Shown here piece after piece: positions 2,995 through 29,141 of a stretch of 64,000 nucleotides of DNA. Source of the stretch: Patescibacteria group bacterium (GTDB taxonomy: Bacteria; Patescibacteriota; Patescibacteriia; Veblenbacterales; UBA10138). The stretch lies in the NCBI GenBank assembly GCA_041645215.1, contig JBAZQK010000002.1, positions 15,435 to 79,434 on the forward strand, read 5' to 3'. Numbering within the stretch: position 1 is the first letter of the stretch; the number at the start of each line of letters is the position of its first letter. The position numbers were made by a program, and so were the translations under genes. A model generated the notes under the pieces. It ran no database searches. It was not told the origin of the DNA and saw only the letters and a program-made list of their open reading frames with translations.

Positions 2995-3273
2995 ATGCTA
3001 TATTATAAACATATGAATGAGCTAGAGCGTGCTCTTAAAGCTATAGCCAACAGGCGTCGCCTAGCCCTGATAAAATATCTCAATTCTCGTCGTGAAGCAT
3101 CAGTGGGGGAATTGGCCGAGGCCATCAAGCTTTCACTTAAAGCCACATCTAAACACTTGGTTATTTTGCATAGCGCGAGCATTGTGGAGCGTGAGCAACG
3201 TTCCCTCCTCATGTACTACCGTCTGGCCGAGCCTCTTCCTAGACCAGTCAAATTCATTCTCTCTTATCTCTAA
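2995..3273 (+). CDS. ArsR/SmtB-family HTH transcriptional regulator
   Basis: wHTH segment VGELAEAIKLSLKATSKHLVILHSASIV; ~90 aa. Confidence 0.65.
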   Translation: MLYYKHMNELERALKAIANRRRLALIKYLNSRREASVGELAEAIKLSLKATSKHLVILHSASIVEREQRSLLMYYRLAEPLPRPVKFILSYL

Positions 3274-3295
3274 TTCGCGCGAATAGGCGAATAGT
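3268..3295. promoter_or_regulatory. Second copy of the 28-bp repeat with perfect palindrome ATTCGCGCGAAT, between the ArsR gene and the downstream IMPase gene
   Basis: Direct repeat of 2952-2979; overlaps the regulator's stop codon. Confidence 0.45.
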
Positions 3296-3338: not shown

Positions 3339-4154
3339 ATGATAAATTTTAGCAAGCGGACAAAATTTTTACTGGAACTCTCCAAAAAAGCCTGCCGGAT
3401 AATGCTGAAATATTATAATCCGTGCGGGGTTGGTTATGTCATAAAAAATAAGAGCAGCGATTGGGGATTGGACGCCGTAACCAAAGCTGACATGGAGGTA
3501 AATAAAATGGTTTTGCGGGAAATAGAAAAACATTATCCAACTTATGACTTGCTAGGGGAGGAGATTAGCTCTTTTAAAAAAGGCCAAAAGCTGTTCGTGG
3601 TTGACCCGATTGACGGCACGCATATGTTTATAATCGGCGCGCCGTTGTTTGTTTTCTCCGCCGCGGTGGTTATAAATGGTAAACCAGTGGCTGGTGTGCT
3701 GGCTAACCCCTTAGCCAAAAGAACCCTACTGGCAGAATTGGACGGGGGCGCTTATTTGGTAGAACGTAATATTAAATTATCAGTTAGCAACCAGAAAACA
3801 TTCAATGGCTCGCTAATTCGTACTGGCTGGAAGGATTGCACTGCCGCTAAACTCCTGCACCGGCAAAATGCCCGTACACCTGAAGTTTATGCTGTTTGTG
3901 AATCTGCCTCGCTAATAGCTACCGGCGGGTTTGACGGTGACATCTTTATGGGTAATGCCGCCCATGATATCGCGGCGGTTAAAATAGTGGTGGAAGAGGC
4001 TGGTGGTAGAGTGACCAATCTTTGGGGACAAGAGCAAAAATACGACCGCGGCATTAAGGGCGCTATTATTACTAATGGCCATTTGCATAAAAAGTTAGTG
4101 GCGCTGGTAAAACAATCCGGCCTGCTAAAAACTTTTCAACCAGCCGCTAAATAA
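3339..4154 (+). CDS. Inositol monophosphatase family protein (IMPase/SuhB-like)
   Basis: VVDPIDGT motif and C-terminal AHDIAAVKIVVEEAGG. Confidence 0.7.
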   Translation: MINFSKRTKFLLELSKKACRIMLKYYNPCGVGYVIKNKSSDWGLDAVTKADMEVNKMVLREIEKHYPTYDLLGEEISSFKKGQKLFVVDPIDGTHMFIIGAPLFVFSAAVVINGKPVAGVLANPLAKRTLLAELDGGAYLVERNIKLSVSNQKTFNGSLIRTGWKDCTAAKLLHRQNARTPEVYAVCESASLIATGGFDGDIFMGNAAHDIAAVKIVVEEAGGRVTNLWGQEQKYDRGIKGAIITNGHLHKKLVALVKQSGLLKTFQPAAK

Positions 4155-4212: not shown

Positions 4213-4512
4213 ATGACCACAAAACTAAAAACCGCTGAACAAATGGAACGTCACTTTAAGGGTATGGCCAATCACTACCGCATTGCGATACTTCTTTTGA
4301 TTGATAAAGAAAGTGGAATTACCGTTGAAGCTATTACTGAACATCTTAAAGCAAACTTCAAAACCATTTCACAACACACTCGCTATCTTATGAATGCCGG
4401 ACTTATCAAAAAACAGTACCAAGGGAGAATGGTCGCACACTATTTGTCGCCCTATGGCAAACACTTTGTCAGATTCATTAAGAACTTTCAGCGTTTAGGT
4501 AGTAAATACTAA
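4213..4512 (+). CDS. ArsR-family HTH transcriptional regulator (second paralogue)
   Basis: HTH-like HYRIAILLLIDKESGITVEAITEHLKANFKTISQHTRYL. Confidence 0.55.
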   Translation: MTTKLKTAEQMERHFKGMANHYRIAILLLIDKESGITVEAITEHLKANFKTISQHTRYLMNAGLIKKQYQGRMVAHYLSPYGKHFVRFIKNFQRLGSKY

Positions 4513-4523
4513 CTAACAACATT

Positions 4524-4545
4524 CTAACATTCTGCAGAATGTTAG
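4524..4545. promoter_or_regulatory. 22-bp perfect palindrome CTAACATTCTGCAGAATGTTAG immediately downstream of the second ArsR gene
   Basis: Same 16-bp core as the upstream palindrome; preceded by tandem AACATTCT AACATTCT. Confidence 0.45.
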
Positions 4546-4709
4546 AGTGATTAAGATGATAAAGTTTCGTGCGCCCAAGCGTGCCATTAAAGGAAAAATT
4601 GTTGTTTTAATTTGACTAATCCATAAAAGCCTAAAAACGAGCTTTTATGGTAAATAAAGAGACTACCTGAAATTTAGGTAGTCCCTAAAAAATAAACAAT
4701 TCTTTTTTG

Positions 4710-15453: not shown

Positions 15454-15455
15454 AG

Positions 15456-15484
15456 CCTCTCCCTTTTGTACAAAAGGGAGGGTA
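15456..15484 (+). terminator. Hairpin CTCCCTTTTGTACAAAAGGGAG after mrdA
   Basis: Perfect 8-bp stem; weak U-tract. Confidence 0.35.
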
Positions 15485-15630
15485 TCTTCCGATACCCGCC
15501 TAACCGCTCGTGCGCCTGCTCGGCCCACGGTCCCGCTAAGCGGGGCGGGCCGGCCAAGATCAGCCTAGGGCTGACAAGTGTTAAGGTGTTCAGGAGGATT
15601 AAGTATTCATGAAGCTTCAGACTTAAGCGC

Positions 15631-15660
15631 TTGACAGGTGTTTAATTTGTCATTATCTTT
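15631..15660 (+). promoter_or_regulatory. Candidate sigma70-like promoter TTGACA-17 nt-TATCTT upstream of greA
   Basis: Hexamer spacing only; would give a long leader containing MITE copy C in antisense. Confidence 0.25.
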
Positions 15661-15725
15661 AGTTTGTTATCAAATTACCCCATTAGAACCTGTTTGTCGC
15701 CAATCCAAATTGGTACAGATAGTAA

Positions 15726-15890
15726 TAGGACTTACGCGCTGGCCGCTTGCCGGGCTGGCGGAGCCCGACCCCGCAAGCGGCTTTGGCCAATTTCTTCGTT
15801 AAAACCTCTGCTTGGCGTTCATCCCGCCAGGGCGGGACTCGCTCCAATGCTCGGTTTTGCCTCGAACTTGGCGCAAACGCGTAAGTCCTA
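15726..15890 (-). mobile_element. Structured MITE copy C (TAGGACTTACG TIR family), 165 bp, 5-bp TSD TTACT (plus-strand AGTAA at 15721-15725 and 15891-15895)
   Basis: 13-bp perfect TIR TAGGACTTACGCG/CGCGTAAGTCCTA; ~85-90% identical to copies at 27400-27565 and 53753-53919 with compensatory substitutions. Confidence 0.75.
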
Positions 15891-15903
15891 AGTAATTAAA
15901 CAA

Positions 15904-16377
15904 TTGTCAATTTATATGAGTAATCAGAGTTATATAACTAAACCAGGGTTGGACAAACTAGCACAAGAGCTAAAAGTGTTAAAAACTGATAAACGTAAAG
16001 CCATCGCCAGTCGTATCCAGGAAGCTAAAGAGTTGGGTGATTTATCGGAAAACGCCGAGTATGCTGAAGCAAAAAACGAACAGGCGTTTATTGAGGGCCG
16101 CATTATTGAGATTGAAAATTTGCTTAAGAACGCCATAATCATAAAGGCTGAAACCGGCAGTGAGGTGGTAAAAATTGGCTGTACGGTTATTTTTGATGGG
16201 CCCCACGGCGAAAAAAAATATACCATTGTCGGCTCCAACGAGGCCGACCCCAGCCGGGGTTTAATTTCTAACGAGTCGCCCATCGGCCAGGCTTTTTTGG
16301 GAAGTAAGGTGGGTGACACGGTTGAAGTAAAGTTACCCAAGGGCGTAGTTCACTATAGCGTAACAAGTATTAAATAG
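15904..16377 (+). CDS. greA: Transcription elongation factor GreA
   Basis: GreA coiled-coil and C-terminal FKBP-like domain; true start may be the ATG at 15916. Confidence 0.85.
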   Translation: MSIYMSNQSYITKPGLDKLAQELKVLKTDKRKAIASRIQEAKELGDLSENAEYAEAKNEQAFIEGRIIEIENLLKNAIIIKAETGSEVVKIGCTVIFDGPHGEKKYTIVGSNEADPSRGLISNESPIGQAFLGSKVGDTVEVKLPKGVVHYSVTSIK

Positions 16378-16564
16378 CCTCCTAAGTTATAACACTCCAC
16401 CCGAAGTACATTGGGGTGGTAGCCAAAACGTCCGTCCTCCGCTGTCCTCAAAAAGGTGAACGAAGGATAATAAATTATGAACGCTCGTTATTAGGCGGGC
16501 GTTTTAGTTTGTCAAAATGGCTAAAGTCCATTAAAATATAGTCACTTAATTAACCATCATATTT

Positions 16565-18097
16565 ATGTCGTCACGTGAAGAACAAGAATTAAAAAGCCGA
16601 TTAGATAAGTTGAAGCAATGGTCTAAGTTGGGAACCGAGTTATATCCGTCAATTTGTCGGCGTCAACATACTTCAATTGATATAATAAAGCTGGCGCAAG
16701 GGCAAAATTTGACTTTACTGGGCGAGGATTTAAGTCCGACAGCCTCAATGATGGTTTATACGGCCGGACGACTAATGACCCTGCGTCCGCACGGATCGCT
16801 GGTGTTTGCCACCTTGCAGGACCAGGCCGGGTTGATTCAGCTGGCGTGGCTGAAAAACAAGACGAAGCCGAAAGAGTGGGAGTTGGTGCAGGCGCTTGAC
16901 CGCGGTGATATTATTGCCGCCGCCGGGCCAATTGTAAAAACTAAAAGTGGCGAGGTAACAGTTTTGGTAAAGGAATTCACGCCGCTGGCTAAAGCCTTGC
17001 GGCCGTTACCGGAAAAATGGCACGGCCTAAAGGATGTCGAGGCCAGGCTTAGGCAACGCTATGTTGATTTAATGATGTCGGCGGAAAGTCGTGAACTTTT
17101 TATTAAAAAAAGCCGGTTTTGGCAGACGGTTCGTTCTTATTTAATGACCGCCGGTTTTATGGAGGTAGACACATCAGCCTTGGAGGTAATTGCCGGCGGG
17201 GCAGACGCCACGCCATTCGTAACGCACCACCAGGCCTTAGATAAAGATTTTTATCTGCGCATATCTTTGGAATTGCCCTTAAAGCGTTTGCTGGTAGGAG
17301 GTTATGAAAAAGTGTTTGAAATTGGCAAAGTTTTTCGCAATGAAGGTATAGATACCGAGCATTTGCAGGATTACACTATGTGCGAGTTTTATTGGGCTTA
17401 TGCCAATTATGAGGACCTAATGTCATTCACGCAAAAAATGTATCAAGAGATTGTGCAAGCCGTAACCCATGCACCAGAGTCACTGCGCGGCACGGTGCCG
17501 GGCGCAGCTGGTGGTCTTACCACCACGTATCAAGGCACGATGATTAATTGGGCAGGGGAGTGGCCGCGCCGAGACTATTTTGCTTTGATAAAAGAAATAT
17601 CGGGTGAGGATTTAGCCGGCGTTACTGAAGTAACAGCTTTGCGTAAATTGCTTGATAAGCATCATCTTAAATATGAAGCTAGTATGGGCGTGGGGCGTTT
17701 GATTGATTTGTGGTTTAAGAAAAAAGTGCGCCCACAAGTAACTGGTCCGATATTTTTGATTAATCATCCGGTGGAAGTGTCGCCCTTAGCTAAACGCGAC
17801 CCTAAAAATCCAGCGCGGGTGCAAAGGCTGCAGATTATCGCCGGCGGTTCGGAATTGGGCAATGGCTTTTCTGAACTTAATGACCCGTTTGACCAGCGCA
17901 GCCGTTTTGCCGAGCAGGCTAAATTGCGCGCCGCTGGTGACAGTGAGGCCATGATGCTGGACGAAGATTTTATTACCGCTTTGGAATATGGCATGCCGCC
18001 CGCCGCCGGCTTTGGCCTGTCCGAGCGGCTATTCAGTTTTATAGTTGACAAATCCATCCGCGAAACCACTCTTTTCCCGCCGATGAGGGATAATTAA
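16565..18097 (+). CDS. lysS: Lysyl-tRNA synthetase, class II
   Basis: OB anticodon-binding N-domain; class II motifs (FRNEG, GGSELGNGFSEL). Confidence 0.85.
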   Translation: MSSREEQELKSRLDKLKQWSKLGTELYPSICRRQHTSIDIIKLAQGQNLTLLGEDLSPTASMMVYTAGRLMTLRPHGSLVFATLQDQAGLIQLAWLKNKTKPKEWELVQALDRGDIIAAAGPIVKTKSGEVTVLVKEFTPLAKALRPLPEKWHGLKDVEARLRQRYVDLMMSAESRELFIKKSRFWQTVRSYLMTAGFMEVDTSALEVIAGGADATPFVTHHQALDKDFYLRISLELPLKRLLVGGYEKVFEIGKVFRNEGIDTEHLQDYTMCEFYWAYANYEDLMSFTQKMYQEIVQAVTHAPESLRGTVPGAAGGLTTTYQGTMINWAGEWPRRDYFALIKEISGEDLAGVTEVTALRKLLDKHHLKYEASMGVGRLIDLWFKKKVRPQVTGPIFLINHPVEVSPLAKRDPKNPARVQRLQIIAGGSELGNGFSELNDPFDQRSRFAEQAKLRAAGDSEAMMLDEDFITALEYGMPPAAGFGLSERLFSFIVDKSIRETTLFPPMRDN

Positions 18098-18098
18098 T

Positions 18099-18461
18099 AT
18101 GGTAGAGAATTTATTGATTCGTTTTGTTGATTCTGCAATCTCCGCGGAGTTACTTAAACAAGTAGCGGCGGAACGATTTGGTGATATGGTTAAAGCAGTG
18201 GTTGATGTGGAGCGCAAAGTAATGGCTATAGGCGGTGAGCTTCATGCCGACGAAGAGCAGTATCTTTTAGAGAATGGTTCTATCCCAACCGACTTGTGGG
18301 GTATTAACATTTATATTAACCAGCCCTTACCGCAAGCCGTAGAATTTGATTCCATGATTAACGTGCGTCCCAGCCAAGCCAATCGCTCGCGGGGTGTGGA
18401 TAATGAGGAGTTGCGGAAAAAGATTATTGGGGTTGTACAATCTTTAGTAGGCCAACCTTAA
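18099..18461 (+). CDS. Hypothetical protein (120 aa), translationally coupled to lysS
   Basis: ATG 2 nt after the lysS stop; no recognisable domain. Confidence 0.4.
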   Translation: MVENLLIRFVDSAISAELLKQVAAERFGDMVKAVVDVERKVMAIGGELHADEEQYLLENGSIPTDLWGINIYINQPLPQAVEFDSMINVRPSQANRSRGVDNEELRKKIIGVVQSLVGQP

Positions 18462-18539
18462 ACCGTATCGTCATTGCGAGCACGTTCACTACGTTCAGTG
18501 TAAACTCCGCGAAGCAATCTAATCTATATGTAATTACTT

Positions 18540-18905
18540 ATGCAACATCGTGATTTATCAGCTGGCAGGTGGAATGAGCTTTCGGTAAGCGCGCAGTTCG
18601 CGAACATCGGCAGCGAGGTAGGGCGAGCTATGTCCGCTCACGAGCAAGGCCTTATGGCGCGTCAAGAAGCAGCTCTTAGACGTGCGTTTGAACTGATTGA
18701 TATGACGCTAACCAATATGACTTTGCGTTCATCAGCCAGACGCGAGGCGGCGCGAGTGCGGGAGTTGGTGGCAGATTACTTTTATGGAGATAATAGTTAC
18801 CAGACTAATCGTCAACAATGGGACAGATACTTTAACCAGTTCGCGGTGGCCGCCAACGCCGCCCGCCGCGAGACCACTCCTTTCCCGCCGATGAGGGATA
18901 ACTGA
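18540..18905 (+). CDS. Hypothetical protein (121 aa) whose last 11 codons derive from a duplicated lysS 3-prime end
   Basis: C-terminus ETTPFPPMRDN matches the LysS C-terminus ETTLFPPMRDN. Confidence 0.4.
   Translation: MQHRDLSAGRWNELSVSAQFANIGSEVGRAMSAHEQGLMARQEAALRRAFELIDMTLTNMTLRSSARREAARVRELVADYFYGDNSYQTNRQQWDRYFNQFAVAANAARRETTPFPPMRDN
18872..18904 (+). repeat. 33-bp direct repeat of the lysS 3-prime end (first copy 18071-18103), bracketing an ~0.8-kb insertion
   Basis: CGAGACCACTCCTTTCCCGCCGATGAGGGATAA vs CGAAACCACTCTTTTCCCGCCGATGAGGGATAA (2 mismatches). Confidence 0.7.
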
Positions 18906-18937
18906 TATATCGAAATTTCGATATATTGATATATCAA
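18905..18937. promoter_or_regulatory. Perfect 22-bp palindrome ATATATCGAAATTTCGATATAT plus 12-bp palindrome TTGATATATCAA
   Basis: Seen directly; lies between the lysS-end duplicate and the four-helix-bundle gene. Confidence 0.4.
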
Positions 18938-18938
18938 T

Positions 18939-19379
18939 ATGGCATCAATCAAGAAATTTGAAGATTTGGTTTGTTGGCAGAGAGCTCGGCAACTGGCCAA
19001 TGAAGTATTTAACTTGACAGATAAAAGTCAATTTAAAGATTTTGACCTTAAACGACAAGTACGGCGAGCCGCAGTATCACCAATGTCCAATATAGCTGAA
19101 GGTTTTGACAGAGCAACCCGTAATGAATTCATAGACGCTTTATACATTGCCAAAGGAGAAGTTGGCGAAGTTAGGAGTCAGACTTACTTAGCTTTTGATA
19201 GAAAATATATCAATCAGTCCGAATTAGAATCTTTATTAAAACTGACTGATGAATGTTCTCGCTTAATTCAAAGCTTTGCCTATAAAGTTAAGGGCGGCTC
19301 TAGGCAAGGCATTCAGTTTAAAACAGTAAAGAAAGCTGATGATTTAGATGAACTGATTAATAGTTATATTGATAAATAA
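18939..19379 (+). CDS. Four-helix-bundle protein (23S rRNA intervening-sequence protein family)
   Basis: Signature LVCWQRARQLANEVFNLT...VRRAAVSPMSNIAEGF. Confidence 0.7.
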   Translation: MASIKKFEDLVCWQRARQLANEVFNLTDKSQFKDFDLKRQVRRAAVSPMSNIAEGFDRATRNEFIDALYIAKGEVGEVRSQTYLAFDRKYINQSELESLLKLTDECSRLIQSFAYKVKGGSRQGIQFKTVKKADDLDELINSYIDK

Positions 19380-19938
19380 AATTATGACGCGTGACGGTGC
19401 CTGGCAATTAGTACAAGAAAAGGTTAAAGGTGCGTTCTTAAGGAACCACCTTTTGGCATCCGAGGCCATAATGCGCGCGTTGGCCCGGCATTTCCAGCAA
19501 GACGAGGAAATTTGGGGACTGGCTGGTTTGGTGCATGATATAGATTGGGAAGTAACGGAAACAGAACCGCAGACGCATGGTTTAATTGGCGCGGGTTGGC
19601 TCTCCAGCGCTGGTTTTCCAGCCGAGGTAGTAGAGGCCGTTAAAGTACACAATCATATGACCGGCCTTGAACCCAAAACACTGTTGGAAAAAACTTTATG
19701 GTGCGCGGAGGAATTAACTGGTTTAATTGTGGCTTGCGCTTATGTTCAGCCGGATAAAAAACTGGCGAGCGTTAAACCGTCGTCAGTCAAGAAAAAATTT
19801 AAAGATAAAGCTTTTGCCGCCGGTGTGAATCGTGAAATTATTTTAAAATGCCAGGAAATGATTGGATTGAGTCTGGATGAATTAATTGACATTGAACTTA
19901 AGGCGATGCAAGAAATTGCTAATGATTTAGGAATGTAA
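19369..19938 (+). CDS. HD-domain (HDIG-type) phosphohydrolase
   Basis: LAGLVHDIDWE with upstream His; ~190 aa. Confidence 0.6.
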   Translation: MINKIMTRDGAWQLVQEKVKGAFLRNHLLASEAIMRALARHFQQDEEIWGLAGLVHDIDWEVTETEPQTHGLIGAGWLSSAGFPAEVVEAVKVHNHMTGLEPKTLLEKTLWCAEELTGLIVACAYVQPDKKLASVKPSSVKKKFKDKAFAAGVNREIILKCQEMIGLSLDELIDIELKAMQEIANDLGM

Positions 19939-19941
19939 TAT

Positions 19942-20355
19942 ATGAAACAGACTAATTTGATAGTGCAAGCCATAATTGAGCACCGGGGTAAGGTACTGGT
20001 TGGCAAAAGATTAAAAACATCTAAACATATGATATTTAGTTCGTGGCAAATTCCCGGTGGGCATCTTGAACCTGACGAAACTTTTGACCAGGCCGTCAAG
20101 CGTGAAATCGGCGAAGAAACCGGTTTGCGTATTAGGTTGATTAAATCATTTCCGTATTTTTTTAATCGCCCGTCGAAAGCAGGCGATCAGGTTTTATTGC
20201 TTTATTATGCCAGGGTAGTCGGTCGGCGGTTATTAAAGAGTAGCCAGGAGTATGGGGAGTTTGCTTGGATTATAAAAAAAGATTTAAAAAATATGGAATT
20301 TACCATTGGTACCAAGCGAGCCTTGACTTATTGGTTTAAATTGCGTAATAGGTAA
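19942..20355 (+). CDS. NUDIX hydrolase
   Basis: Nudix box GGHLEPDETFDQAVKREIGEETGL. Confidence 0.7.
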   Translation: MKQTNLIVQAIIEHRGKVLVGKRLKTSKHMIFSSWQIPGGHLEPDETFDQAVKREIGEETGLRIRLIKSFPYFFNRPSKAGDQVLLLYYARVVGRRLLKSSQEYGEFAWIIKKDLKNMEFTIGTKRALTYWFKLRNR

Positions 20356-20360
20356 ATTAT

Positions 20361-20636
20361 ATGAATATAGAAAAAATACTACCAATAAGAGAAGACGAGA
20401 GAGGAGCACGTTATGATTTGGAAATTATTAAAGTAGTTATACGCAAAAGCGGTACTATCAGCGCTGACCATCAGCACCCTGAAGCGGAAGTACTTTATTT
20501 CATAAGCGGTCAGGTTAAGTTAACAGTAGGCGAGGAAACTCAAATTATTACCGCGCCGGTTAAGGTTACTATACCGCCTAATACTTATCATAAGATTGAA
20601 GCTTTGACTGATTTTATTTTGCTTTACGAAAGATAG
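20361..20636 (+). CDS. Small cupin-like protein
   Basis: 91-aa beta-rich ORF with His pair (HQHPEAEV); weak. Confidence 0.3.
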   Translation: MNIEKILPIREDERGARYDLEIIKVVIRKSGTISADHQHPEAEVLYFISGQVKLTVGEETQIITAPVKVTIPPNTYHKIEALTDFILLYER

Positions 20637-20640
20637 TACT

Positions 20641-21120
20641 ATGTCTTACGAAAAATCTAATAAACTTCATATTGTGGCGGTAACGGCAGTTATTCGCAAT
20701 CGCGAAGGCAGATATTTATTGCTAAAGCGTCATCCCCGGGAGATTACTTTTCCTAACAGGTGGTGTTTTCCCGGCGGTAAAGTTGACGGCAATGATTCAG
20801 TTGAATACACCTTACGCAAAGAAGTTAAGGAGGAGGCTGGACTCAATTTGTTGCCGGGAAAAATATTGTTGCGGGATACGGTTTTTACCAGACCGGACGG
20901 GCAAACAGCCATGGTTTTTACCTATCTTTGTCAGGCCGACGACAAGCAAGAAGTTAAGCTAGATGTTAATGATTTTATTGATTATAAATGGGTGAGACTA
21001 GAAGATTTAAAAGATTTGGAACACGTTGGCGTGGACGAGGAAATAGCGCAGGCGGAAAAAATACTTAATTTAGGAATACCATTTGACCGTCTGATTACCC
21101 CGTCTGGACCGAAGGAATAA
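20641..21120 (+). CDS. NUDIX hydrolase
   Basis: Nudix box GGKVDGNDSVEYTLRKEVKEEAGL. Confidence 0.7.
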   Translation: MSYEKSNKLHIVAVTAVIRNREGRYLLLKRHPREITFPNRWCFPGGKVDGNDSVEYTLRKEVKEEAGLNLLPGKILLRDTVFTRPDGQTAMVFTYLCQADDKQEVKLDVNDFIDYKWVRLEDLKDLEHVGVDEEIAQAEKILNLGIPFDRLITPSGPKE

Positions 21121-21751: not shown

Positions 21752-22030
21752 TACAACTTGGCTAGCACTCGCCCTAACCACCAGCTATTATAACTTTATG
21801 TCTTATCTAACATCATTTAATCATTTATTCTTGTCTAACCACGCTTCGTGTGTAAGGGTGGTTAAGCCAAGTTGATATACTGGGTATGCCCAGTAACAAA
21901 ACTTCACTATACTCGCAAAGGCACTTGATATTAATCCTCATTTATAAACCTATGATTTTAGTTTCAGCTAATTTAATTTCTCTTTCACTCGGCTCGTATA
22001 AAGTGCCTAGTGAAGTTATTGTTACTGGGT

Positions 22031-28205: not shown

Positions 28206-29141
28206 ATGCTGCCGCACTTTGATGATTTTCTGCTTTCATTGCAGGTGAATAATTATTCTAAAGAGACGGTCTATAATTACGAGCGCGACCTTAAGGTGTT
28301 TGAATTTTTTTTGGTTAATGACATAAAATTGAAAAATTTTGCCAAAATTAATAAAAAAACCATAGAACTTTATAAGGCTTATTTGGCCTCCAGAGACCGT
28401 GAGACGGCGACTGGCAAAAAAAGTCATGGCCAACTAACAAGTTTTTCAACTAATAGATTTTTATCTTCTTTGCGTCGCTATCTTAAATACTTGATTGAAA
28501 TGGACCTGCCTACTCCCCTGCCGCCCGAGGCGGTTAAGCTGGTAAAGACTGAGCGAAAGCACCCGCAGGTGGCGGAATTCACTGAACTGGTGCGCTTAAT
28601 TGAATCACCAACTTGGTTAGAAAAAAATAAGGTAGTTGGTTTGCGCAATCGGGTGATGTTGGAGGTTTTATTTGCCACTGGTATGCGGATTTCCGAATTA
28701 ACCGGACTTAATCGGGTACAAATCGACGACAGCGGCCGTATATTTATAACGGGTAAGGGTAAAAAACAGCGCTTTGTTTATTTGACCGAGCGGGCCAAAA
28801 AATATTTGAATATGTATTTAGCTAAACGTCCAGATACACACCCGGCCCTATTTATTCCCTACCGGGGAGGGAATGCCGGTAAGAATAACAGACGTTTATC
28901 AACTAATTATTTACAAATGAAAATCAAACAATACCGCGAGACTTTGCGCATAAATGTGCCAACCTCGGCCCACTCCCTGCGTCATGGCTTTGCCACTTAT
29001 TTGGCGGAAAGCGGCGCTAATCCGGCAGCTATTCAAGTTTTACTCGGTCACGAATCGCTTGATACCACTACCCGTTATGTCCACGCCTCCGATAAATATG
29101 CCGAAAGTACGCATAAAAAATTTCATCCGTTAAAAACTTGA
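28206..29141 (+). CDS. Tyrosine site-specific recombinase (XerC/XerD-like)
   Basis: N-terminal SAM-like core-binding domain; catalytic box HSLRHGFATYLAESG...LGHESLDTTTRYVH. Confidence 0.8.
   Translation: MLPHFDDFLLSLQVNNYSKETVYNYERDLKVFEFFLVNDIKLKNFAKINKKTIELYKAYLASRDRETATGKKSHGQLTSFSTNRFLSSLRRYLKYLIEMDLPTPLPPEAVKLVKTERKHPQVAEFTELVRLIESPTWLEKNKVVGLRNRVMLEVLFATGMRISELTGLNRVQIDDSGRIFITGKGKKQRFVYLTERAKKYLNMYLAKRPDTHPALFIPYRGGNAGKNNRRLSTNYLQMKIKQYRETLRINVPTSAHSLRHGFATYLAESGANPAAIQVLLGHESLDTTTRYVHASDKYAESTHKKFHPLKT

Follow-up and report, generated by a model that had tools for sequence, protein, structure and literature searches.

How does a two-gene segment of less than a kilobase come to lie between two copies of the end of an essential gene, and what moves it if it moves at all? 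The question is raised by a 64,000-nucleotide (nt) stretch of a Patescibacteria genome (contig JBAZQK010000002.1; the whole 64-kb stretch is called the window below), in which the last codons of lysS, the gene for class II lysyl-tRNA synthetase (LysRS), recur downstream as the end of an unrelated open reading frame (ORF). An initial annotation of this DNA had taken the two copies for the attL and attR sites of an integrase since lost, and the DNA between them for its cargo. We report here that the segment, which consists of a gene for a DUF5674 family protein and an ORF that we call ORF3, is a cassette that has moved horizontally among related lineages, and that its right-hand repeat copy travels with it. 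The means of movement is probably, though by no wide measure, host recombination at conserved gene ends, and not an integrase of the cassette's own.

A repeat search of positions 16000-20500 gave as the longest repeat a direct repeat of 43 nt, with copies at 18058-18100 and 18866-18908 (spacing 808) that are identical at 39 of 43 positions; the next families are 14-25 nt long and 67-93% identical (most of them 74-88%). A degenerate 20-mer made from the repeat has zero-mismatch matches in the 64-kb window at the two known copies only, and the repeat is real and non-random. Its first copy (tail1, plus strand) comprises the final 12 codons of lysS (16565-18097, plus strand; Pfam tRNA-synt_2, E 1.5e-66, and tRNA_anti-codon), the stop codon and 3 nt more, and its second copy (tail2, plus strand) is lysS-derived sequence fused in frame to ORF3. 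The initial annotation had described a 33-bp repeat with two mismatches at 18071-18103 and 18872-18904. The duplication stands, but those intervals are spaced by 801 and not 808, about 7 nt out of register, and when the last 33 nt of lysS including its stop (18065-18097) are set in register against 18873-18905 there are three mismatches (CTT/CCT, AAT/AAC and TAA/TGA). The gene layout that it described is as we find it. Two small plus-strand ORFs lie between the copies: the DUF5674 gene (18099-18461; 120 amino acids, aa), assigned by Pfam, whose ATG is one base past the lysS TAA, and, after a spacer of 78 nt (18462-18539), ORF3 (18540-18905; 121 aa), a helical-bundle protein of an unnamed family. 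Copy 2 provides the C-terminus of ORF3, which ends ...RRETTPFPPMRDN, and lysS ends ...IRETTLFPPMRDN; a perfect 22-bp palindrome (18905-18926) and a four-helix-bundle gene (18939-19379) come next. Tail1 holds a GAGG 10 nt upstream of the DUF5674 ATG, and the same GAGG lies just 5' of a DUF3800 start in one relative (locus L028) and of a NYN start in another (L029), in both cases after tail2, so the motif may serve as a ribosome-binding site. Read from the sequence, the tail also contains an imperfect dyad, TTTTCCC-N8-GGGATAA.

The lysS region was compared across about 25 loci of relatives (L numbers), found as lysS homologues in genome and metagenome collections and as contigs encoding ORF3 homologues. 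All of these loci are metagenome assemblies, and the trees are simple neighbor-joining (NJ) trees of one protein, LysRS, with bootstraps. Within the clade, where lysS orthologues have 65-72% identity and the full set of loci has lysS 65-76% identical to that of the window, the backbone order is PBP2, greA, lysS, a variable stretch, HD, a second variable stretch, NUDIX, Ham1 and serS. The HD-domain gene, identified by Pfam HD and by synteny (19384-19938 in the window, plus strand), is the right conserved anchor of the first variable stretch, and lysS is the left. This slot differs in nearly every genome, where it holds genes for membrane proteins, DUF3800, a NYN-domain gene, HTH genes, a 23S_rRNA_IVP (IVP) gene or the DUF5674-ORF3 pair, and in L048 it is empty, with HD starting 17 nt after lysS. 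The pair is carried by the window, its conspecific L061, L001, L028, L029-L031, L033, L035, L037 and L071. It is absent from L002, L004 and L042-L049, which have lysS with a single tail and so present an unoccupied target of the kind expected of an attB site. Relatives with an uninterrupted lysS, which the initial annotation had named as a check on its reading, therefore exist, but in none of them does lysS directly precede the sequence found from 18905 onward in the window. The observation that it had named as refuting, both small ORFs with no repeat, is also seen in part, since in L035, L037 and L071 the pair follows lysS and the repeat is missing. In the LysRS tree carriers have non-carrier sisters (L028 with L004/L003, bootstrap 100; L071 with L045, 97; L001 with L044, 78), and the clade of L002, L047 and L048 has no cassette. 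The slot is thus hypervariable and the distribution of the cassette patchy.

At four-fold degenerate sites the cassette genes (DUF5674 and ORF3) are 0.51-0.78 identical among the window, L001, L028 and L033, compared with 0.24-0.43 for lysS in the same comparisons and 0.34-0.41 for HD in pairs that include the window; the difference between cassette and flanking genes has a Fisher p of 7e-7 to 3e-3 in five of the six pairs. Against L029, L035 and L037, at similar host divergence, DUF5674 and ORF3 are saturated (0.10-0.47), and the similarity of the cassettes is therefore not a matter of codon bias. Third-position identity rises from 0.27-0.53 over the last 30 codons of lysS to 0.73-0.83 over the first 30 codons of DUF5674. 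Since the cassette is less diverged at synonymous sites than lysS and HD, it has moved horizontally among the lineages of the window, L001, L028 and L033. In two AT-rich genomes the GC content of third codon positions (GC3) of ORF3 lies above that of the host (0.41 versus 0.31 in L001, 0.44 versus 0.38 in L028). The common ancestor of the tail-bearing cassette is therefore more recent than that of the genomes that carry it, and the left edge of the cassette is the lysS stop. The proposal that the DNA between the repeats is cargo inserted at the lysS terminus is thus upheld, the segment being younger at synonymous sites than its flanks and patchy in relatives. Transfer of a piece of lysS along with the cassette was considered and rejected; there is a weak hint of it only between the window and L033 (18/31 versus 22/72 four-fold matches), and the edge in the profile is sharp.

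Members of the ORF3 family are usually 108-112 aa long and end near ...FAVAANAAR, and it is exactly at this normal end that the lysS sequence is joined, with the identical pattern …GCC GCC CGY MGS GAR AC… in all tail carriers. Across the joint the sequence is …GCC GCC CGC / CGC GAR ACY… (the stroke marks the joint) and lysS reads ATC CGC GAA, so that CCGC is common to both. The tail peptide ETTPFPPMRDN is found only in the closest relatives of ORF3, and tail-bearing proteins have the signature DYFYG…R[EQ]QW[DE]RYF versus DWFYGG…ESWNRYF in tail-less ones; the shared joint and these allele signatures indicate that the fusion arose once. Tail1 is of host type at synonymous sites in the other genomes. 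The tail2 copies of L001 and L028 differ at 1 position of a 24-nt core while each differs from its own tail1 at 4-5, and the tail2 copies of L001, L028 and L033 are nearer to each other than to the tail1 of the same genome. The cassette of L033, tail included, sits behind a DUF3800 gene, 1.8 kb from lysS. The right-hand copy, then, travels with the cassette and is not remade at each insertion. An att site would leave at each occupied position a repeat regenerated from the host, and this is not what is found, given the repeat-less L035, L037 and L071 and the cassette-type tail2 of L001, L028 and L033. The tail is in frame with ORF3 in the window, L061, L001, L028 and L033; in the more diverged P0006, P0007, P0011 and P0013 the tail DNA is in another frame (…AAKQSFFHR) or half degenerate (…KLSSPPMRSK). 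An AlphaFold2 model of ORF3 (pLDDT 89.8) has five helices and low confidence at residues 113-121, and the lysS-derived tail is predicted to be disordered.

Sequence has also passed between the two copies of the window itself. Both read ACC ACT (Thr-Thr) and GAT AAY (Asp-Asn), where 20 of 20 other LysRS sequences read ETV, and the presence of ETT and DN in both copies indicates that they were homogenized in the window lineage, whether through gene conversion or because the cassette re-integrated by way of its tail; this exchange is why the repeat, at 39/43 identity, is so conspicuous here. Short-tract recombination is active at the locus. The window and L061 differ by 22 single-nucleotide polymorphisms within 18635-18813, inside ORF3, and are identical over 18814-20965 (2.1 kb), beyond which smaller clusters lie at 20966-21000 and 21774-21864; the clusters have the appearance of short tracts that recombination brought in from diverged alleles, and no sampled allele fits as donor of the 18635-18813 tract. 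L031 and L064 have three tail copies, in the order lysS, ORF3 tail, NYN gene, internally deleted ORF3 fragment and third tail. The NYN cassette present in these two is precisely absent from L062 and L063 (two independent assemblies), with the crossover within the 17-nt identity CCGCCGATGAGGAGTAA, which belongs to two tail copies, and L065 has the ORF3-NYN unit twice in tandem; these NYN variants were seen in separate assemblies, made from populations that are closely related. The cassette of L028 (4649-5366) is a mosaic, with third-position identity to L001 of 0.70-0.87 in ORF3 and 0.43-0.57 in DUF5674, and its DUF5674 gene has a TTG start preceded by a fragment of the HD 5' end. A circular or tandem form of the cassette is predicted to contain the junction …CGCCGCGAGACCACTCC…GATAA[Y]T[AG]ATATGGTAGAGAA, in which the left part of tail2 is joined to the DUF5674 start, and precise excision is predicted to leave the lysS tail followed by TATATCGAAATTTCGATATAT.

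Duplicated sequences of at least three kinds are found at the junctions of the slot. A 73-nt duplication of the HD 5' end in L001 (8951-9023 and 10026-10098, 81% identity) brackets a 327-aa ORF; fragments of the same end lie upstream of DUF5674 in L028 (~4500-4600), L033 (~1975-2020) and L071 (~3545-3580), and another is present in L042/L043 (L042 8025-8147). The recurring fragment encodes MTRD/EQAWQLVQEK… and mirrors, across the slot, the duplication of the lysS tail. In L031 and L064 it is the 3' end of ORF3, together with the tail, that is duplicated around the NYN gene. Junctions at the HD 5' end and the ORF3 3' end fit general recombination better than a single dedicated att site.

No integrase was called in or beside the cassette in any cassette-bearing locus, as judged from the Pfam families of the Patescibacteria carriers. 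A regular-expression scan for recombinase motifs also gave nothing, which is weak evidence since the scan missed an Xer-like tyrosine recombinase gene (28206-29141, 311 aa; Phage_integrase and Phage_int_SAM_1) that lies 9 kb from the cassette and is the only recombinase among the 16 window proteins scanned with Pfam. With no integrase in any carrier, a cassette-borne tail2 and other junctions made of other gene ends, the identification of the repeat as an integrase's attL and attR is not supported. The insert does have target-derived direct repeats around it (43 nt, 39/43), as an integrative element would. It does not resemble a transposon with its target site duplication, since the repeat is 43 nt and not 2-14 bp, no terminal inverted repeats are reported and there is no transposase. 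Nor does it resemble an integron cassette, as there is no intI, the tail folds no better than shuffled sequence and the junction palindromes differ between genomes. The locus does have features of a product of homology-facilitated illegitimate recombination (HFIR) or homologous recombination: an anchor in lysS on one side, a joint at CCGC microhomology on the other, and short-tract recombination at the locus.

We therefore favor, as somewhat better than an even proposition, a cassette without a recombinase of its own that the host's recombination, homologous or illegitimate, reshuffles at the conserved ends of genes, because no recombinase is adjacent and at least three different duplicated junction sequences are in use. 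The cassette would have begun with a joining, presumably illegitimate to judge from the sequences at the joint, of the last ORF3 codon (…AAR) to the ~36 nt that end a lysS gene, at or next to CCGC, an HFIR-like event anchored in lysS whose product would be bounded on both sides by lysS sequence. This tail-bearing form would then have spread horizontally among lineages that are saturated at synonymous sites, and host homologous recombination or HFIR at short gene ends (lysS 3', HD 5'), probably acting on DNA taken up from relatives, would have produced gain, loss, duplication and mosaicism. The tail would be translated as a disordered C-terminal extension of ORF3 and would place its GAGG, stop and start junction ahead of whichever gene is next, and in the window lineage the copies would later have exchanged sequence by gene conversion or re-integration. 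That host recombination and not a dedicated site-specific recombinase does this work, and that DNA uptake supplies it, we infer from sequence comparison. Several points weigh against this account. RecA-type exchange is poorly served by the lysS tails, whose identity between lineages is only ~75-85%, with about every third base mismatched. In a binned profile the transferred DNA begins abruptly at the lysS stop, which is the outcome expected of a site-specific event. Both the tail identity of ~80% and this sharp left edge would be more naturally explained by a trans-acting site-specific recombinase. The DUF3800, NYN and DUF5674 cassettes begin 1-10 nt past a tail copy, like accretion at an att site, and the tail dyad appears to be of the type bound by tyrosine recombinases. 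Finally, repeats in metagenome assemblies can cause mis-joins, but the same layout recurs in independent assemblies.

These points lead to the possibility, which we regard as rather unlikely, that the copies are after all the attL and attR of a cis-mobilizable element, with the lysS 3' end as attB and a site-specific recombinase (tyrosine, possibly Xer-type) acting in trans. In Firmicutes the 3' end of lysS is a documented att site of integrative and conjugative elements (ICEs) with tyrosine integrases, with direct repeats of 13-17 bp, and of vanD islands, with repeats of 11 bp (PMC4701971, PMC8725431). At our locus the edges of the cassette coincide sharply with tail copies, three tail copies stand in series in L031, different cargo genes start right past a tail copy, and both an Xer-like recombinase gene in the window and a dyad in the tail are at hand. 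Yet an integrase-bearing element occupies the site in none of the ~25 clade loci, the 43-nt repeat is longer than the known lysS cores, tail2 is inherited with the cassette and not regenerated from the host site, the cassette stands after lysS with no repeat in three relatives, and the sequences at other slot junctions, which are the 5' end of HD, the 3' end of ORF3 and, in L071, a palindrome, are unrelated to the tail. A bolder form of the idea, for which we see only a slender chance, is that cassettes are exchanged by a dedicated system, with the lysS tail and the HD head as its true recombination sites and an integron-like slot on which a recombinase, perhaps of Xer type, acts in trans; the translated C-terminal tail of the DUF5674-ORF3 cassette would then be this cassette's own site. 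We know of no description of site-specific gene-cassette traffic without cassette-borne integrases in reduced Patescibacteria genomes.

It is improbable, in our judgment, that the tail is a functional part of ORF3, a LysRS C-terminal peptide (ETVLFPPMR) exapted for example as a mimic or interaction tag and kept similar to its source by selection. The tail is in frame in the five loci listed above, and the differences in the tail2 core among L001, L028 and L033 are all third-position and synonymous (for example 4/4 between L001 and L033), which hints at constraint. However, P0006, P0007, P0011 and P0013 read this DNA in another frame or have it half degenerate, most family members lack a tail, the tail is predicted to be disordered, the window copy has an L to P change, and in a young cassette few changes would be expected anyway. 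This reading explains persistence but not origin, and is compatible with host recombination. A purely vertical history, in which an ancient tandem duplication or slippage in situ produced a cassette that never moved and absences are deletions between the repeats, seems very improbable to us. It could draw on the wide occurrence of the order lysS-DUF5674-ORF3 in the clade, the ease of deletion between direct repeats (L004 resembles L028 minus the inter-tail segment) and the tandem duplication in L065. It is disfavored by synonymous-site identity of the cassette far above that of its flanks in five of six pairs, by ORF3 GC3 off the host value in L001 and L028, by the different position of the cassette relative to DUF3800 in L028 and L033, and by the mosaic L028 cassette; equal cassette identity to L035 and L037, which would point to intrinsically low synonymous rates, is not observed. 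It is scarcely credible that the repeat is a shared regulatory element (a terminator, attenuator or RNA motif) required after both genes. Each copy does stand at the end of a coding region, with a start or an intergenic hairpin after it, and contains GAGG, but copies elsewhere differ mainly at synonymous sites and the coding function of lysS explains the conservation of copy 1. A terminator or attenuator was rejected, with no terminator-like site at either copy, a tail1 fold at z +0.44 relative to shuffled sequence and no Rfam match.

How does such a cassette compare with known elements? Streptococcal ICESt3-type elements and Enterococcus vanD islands are 20-200 kb long and have their own integrase and transfer functions (PMC4701971, PMC8725431). 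Our cassette is like them in its target, the last bases of lysS, in the gene-end direct repeats around the insert and in leaving lysS intact, its last codons being provided or kept by the insert. It is unlike them in its size of 0.8 kb, its two genes, its lack of a recombinase and its 43-nt repeat, and in that its right-hand copy is a constant portion of a cassette gene and is translated with it. Staphylococcal cassette chromosome (SCC) elements insert in the last codons of rlmH (orfX), with direct repeats that include those codons, by means of ccr serine recombinases. The cassette resembles SCCmec in its use of the last codons of a housekeeping gene, in repeats that include those codons and in tandem accretion separated by repeat copies, but no ccr serine recombinase is present at it. 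Cis-mobilizable elements (CIMEs) are att-flanked DNAs that lack an integrase and are moved by that of a related element, and other modules, such as integrative mobile elements exploiting Xer (IMEX) and pdif modules, depend on Xer. Small cargo, repeats like recombination sites and no recombinase of their own are traits that the cassette has in common with all of these. It differs in that no cognate integrase-bearing element was seen at the site among the ~25 clade loci, a limited sample, in that its repeat has no 11-6-11 dif-like architecture and in that the other slot junctions differ in sequence. HFIR is known from experiments on transformable model bacteria, in which it usually yields single events. 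Its part in natural transformation has been discussed (PMC6382021), and replacement islands driven by homologous recombination are the stated subject of another paper (PMC4033161). The locus is like HFIR and flexible islands in having a single conserved anchor gene, an illegitimate joint where a short GC-rich microhomology lies, imported tracts of short length, and conserved genes with a variable slot between them. It is unlike HFIR in that a cassette with its own copy of the anchor end appears to have become repeatedly transferable. The cassette thus combines known phenomena: insertion sites at gene 3' ends, integrase-less att-flanked elements and recombination-driven flexible slots.

The two cassette genes also occur without lysS. 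DUF5674 and ORF3 are adjacent or overlapping in L001, L035 and Omnitrophica loci (versus a 78-nt gap in the window), and the pair lies far from any lysS in Omnitrophica (L039/L040, L067/L068) and Krumholzibacteriota (L069). Since the two are neighbors in unrelated genomes away from lysS, they form an autonomous two-gene module that is present in several phyla. The DUF5674 match (PF18924) scores 106.3 bits against a cut-off of 27, over 107 of 109 model positions (E 1e-30), and the family has at least 7997 matches and, when sampled across phyla, a mean column identity of 66%. Its invariant polar residues (K32, D36, H49, D51, E53, N70, E82, D84, R90, Q93 and N95) suggest an enzyme; a literature search found no published work on the family. 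DUF5674 is also encoded on Nostocales plasmids (L072, L073), followed by an overlapping ORF of ~120 aa, which we rejected as an ORF3 homologue since no similarity is detectable. ORF3 has 167 homologues (in Patescibacteria, Omnitrophica, Krumholzibacteriota and others), with no Pfam domain in any of the 120 of them that were listed, and itself has no Pfam, NCBIfam or PADLOC match. Its fold matches nothing in the PDB significantly (the best hit is FliS, E 0.84), and the idea that it is a diverged IVP/Avd four-helix-bundle protein was dropped at an hhalign probability of 0.8%. Neither PADLOC nor NCBIfam matches the cassette to toxin-antitoxin or defense families; its contexts in other phyla are ordinary chromosomal ones, and the close coupling of two genes is the sole toxin-antitoxin-like trait. 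No viral relatives of either gene were found in IMG/VR or GenBank phages. The window has two tRNA genes only, both tRNA-Gln, at 1340 and 61696, and a tRNA or tmRNA target near the cassette was rejected on this ground. Large serine recombinase elements (with TIR, Rep_1, HTH and SpoVG genes) lie just 3' of the pair in two loci from outside the Patescibacteria (L039, 5550-7302 and beyond; L068, 4350-5888). They do not target ORF3: the one in L068 adjoins a tRNA gene and the one in L039 is ~220 nt past ORF3. L040 and L041 have the empty sites for the latter.

The genes in and around the repeats are, in order, lysS, DUF5674, ORF3, IVP, HD, NUDIX, cupin, NUDIX and Ham1. The 22-nt palindrome ATATATCGAAATTTCGATATAT (18905-18926) between tail2 and the IVP gene occurs once in the window and, among relatives, only in L061; its hairpin has 10 bp (z -2.6) and lacks a T-run. 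The four-helix-bundle gene, a variable neighbor of the cassette (18939-19379, plus strand; 146 aa; 23S_rRNA_IVP, PF05635, E 1.2e-31, TIGR02436), is found at this position only in the window and L061 among the loci compared. It is bracketed by a 16-nt direct repeat, TATATTGATAWATMAA (14/16 identical, 18922-18937 and 19365-19380), and may be another inserted cassette. In L071 copies of a near-perfect 24-nt palindrome, TTTCTTATTCGCGCGAATAAGAAA (3612-3629 and 4357-4374), stand on either side of the tail-less pair, and the contig breaks off within the second one; the window has two copies of a motif resembling it, TAATTCGCRCGAATAG, in an intergenic region (2955-2970 and 3271-3286). A hairpin-like motif of ~50 nt (GCACCGCTTAAGGACA..CTTAAGAAGTGCCTTTTC.TGTGTATG) is common to cassette boundaries in L033 (~2020-2075), where it is upstream of DUF5674, and L031 (~1895-1950), where it is downstream of NYN. 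Upstream of lysS, between the genes for a PBP2-type transpeptidase and greA, 450 nt of the window (15454-15903) contain no convincing ORF and have no Rfam match even at E<=1.

Patescibacteria have tiny genomes with few recognizable mobile elements, and their exchange of accessory genes is poorly understood; the lysS locus is an example of it that can be traced in sequence. By gaining the conserved end of an essential neighbor gene, the cassette has come to be bounded by sequence that is present in every relative, and the locus illustrates how a piece of an aminoacyl-tRNA synthetase can end up being translated as an extension to a protein unrelated to it. A slot with several duplicated gene ends and live polymorphism in presence, absence and tandem copy is a natural system in which host recombination can be set against a hidden recombinase.

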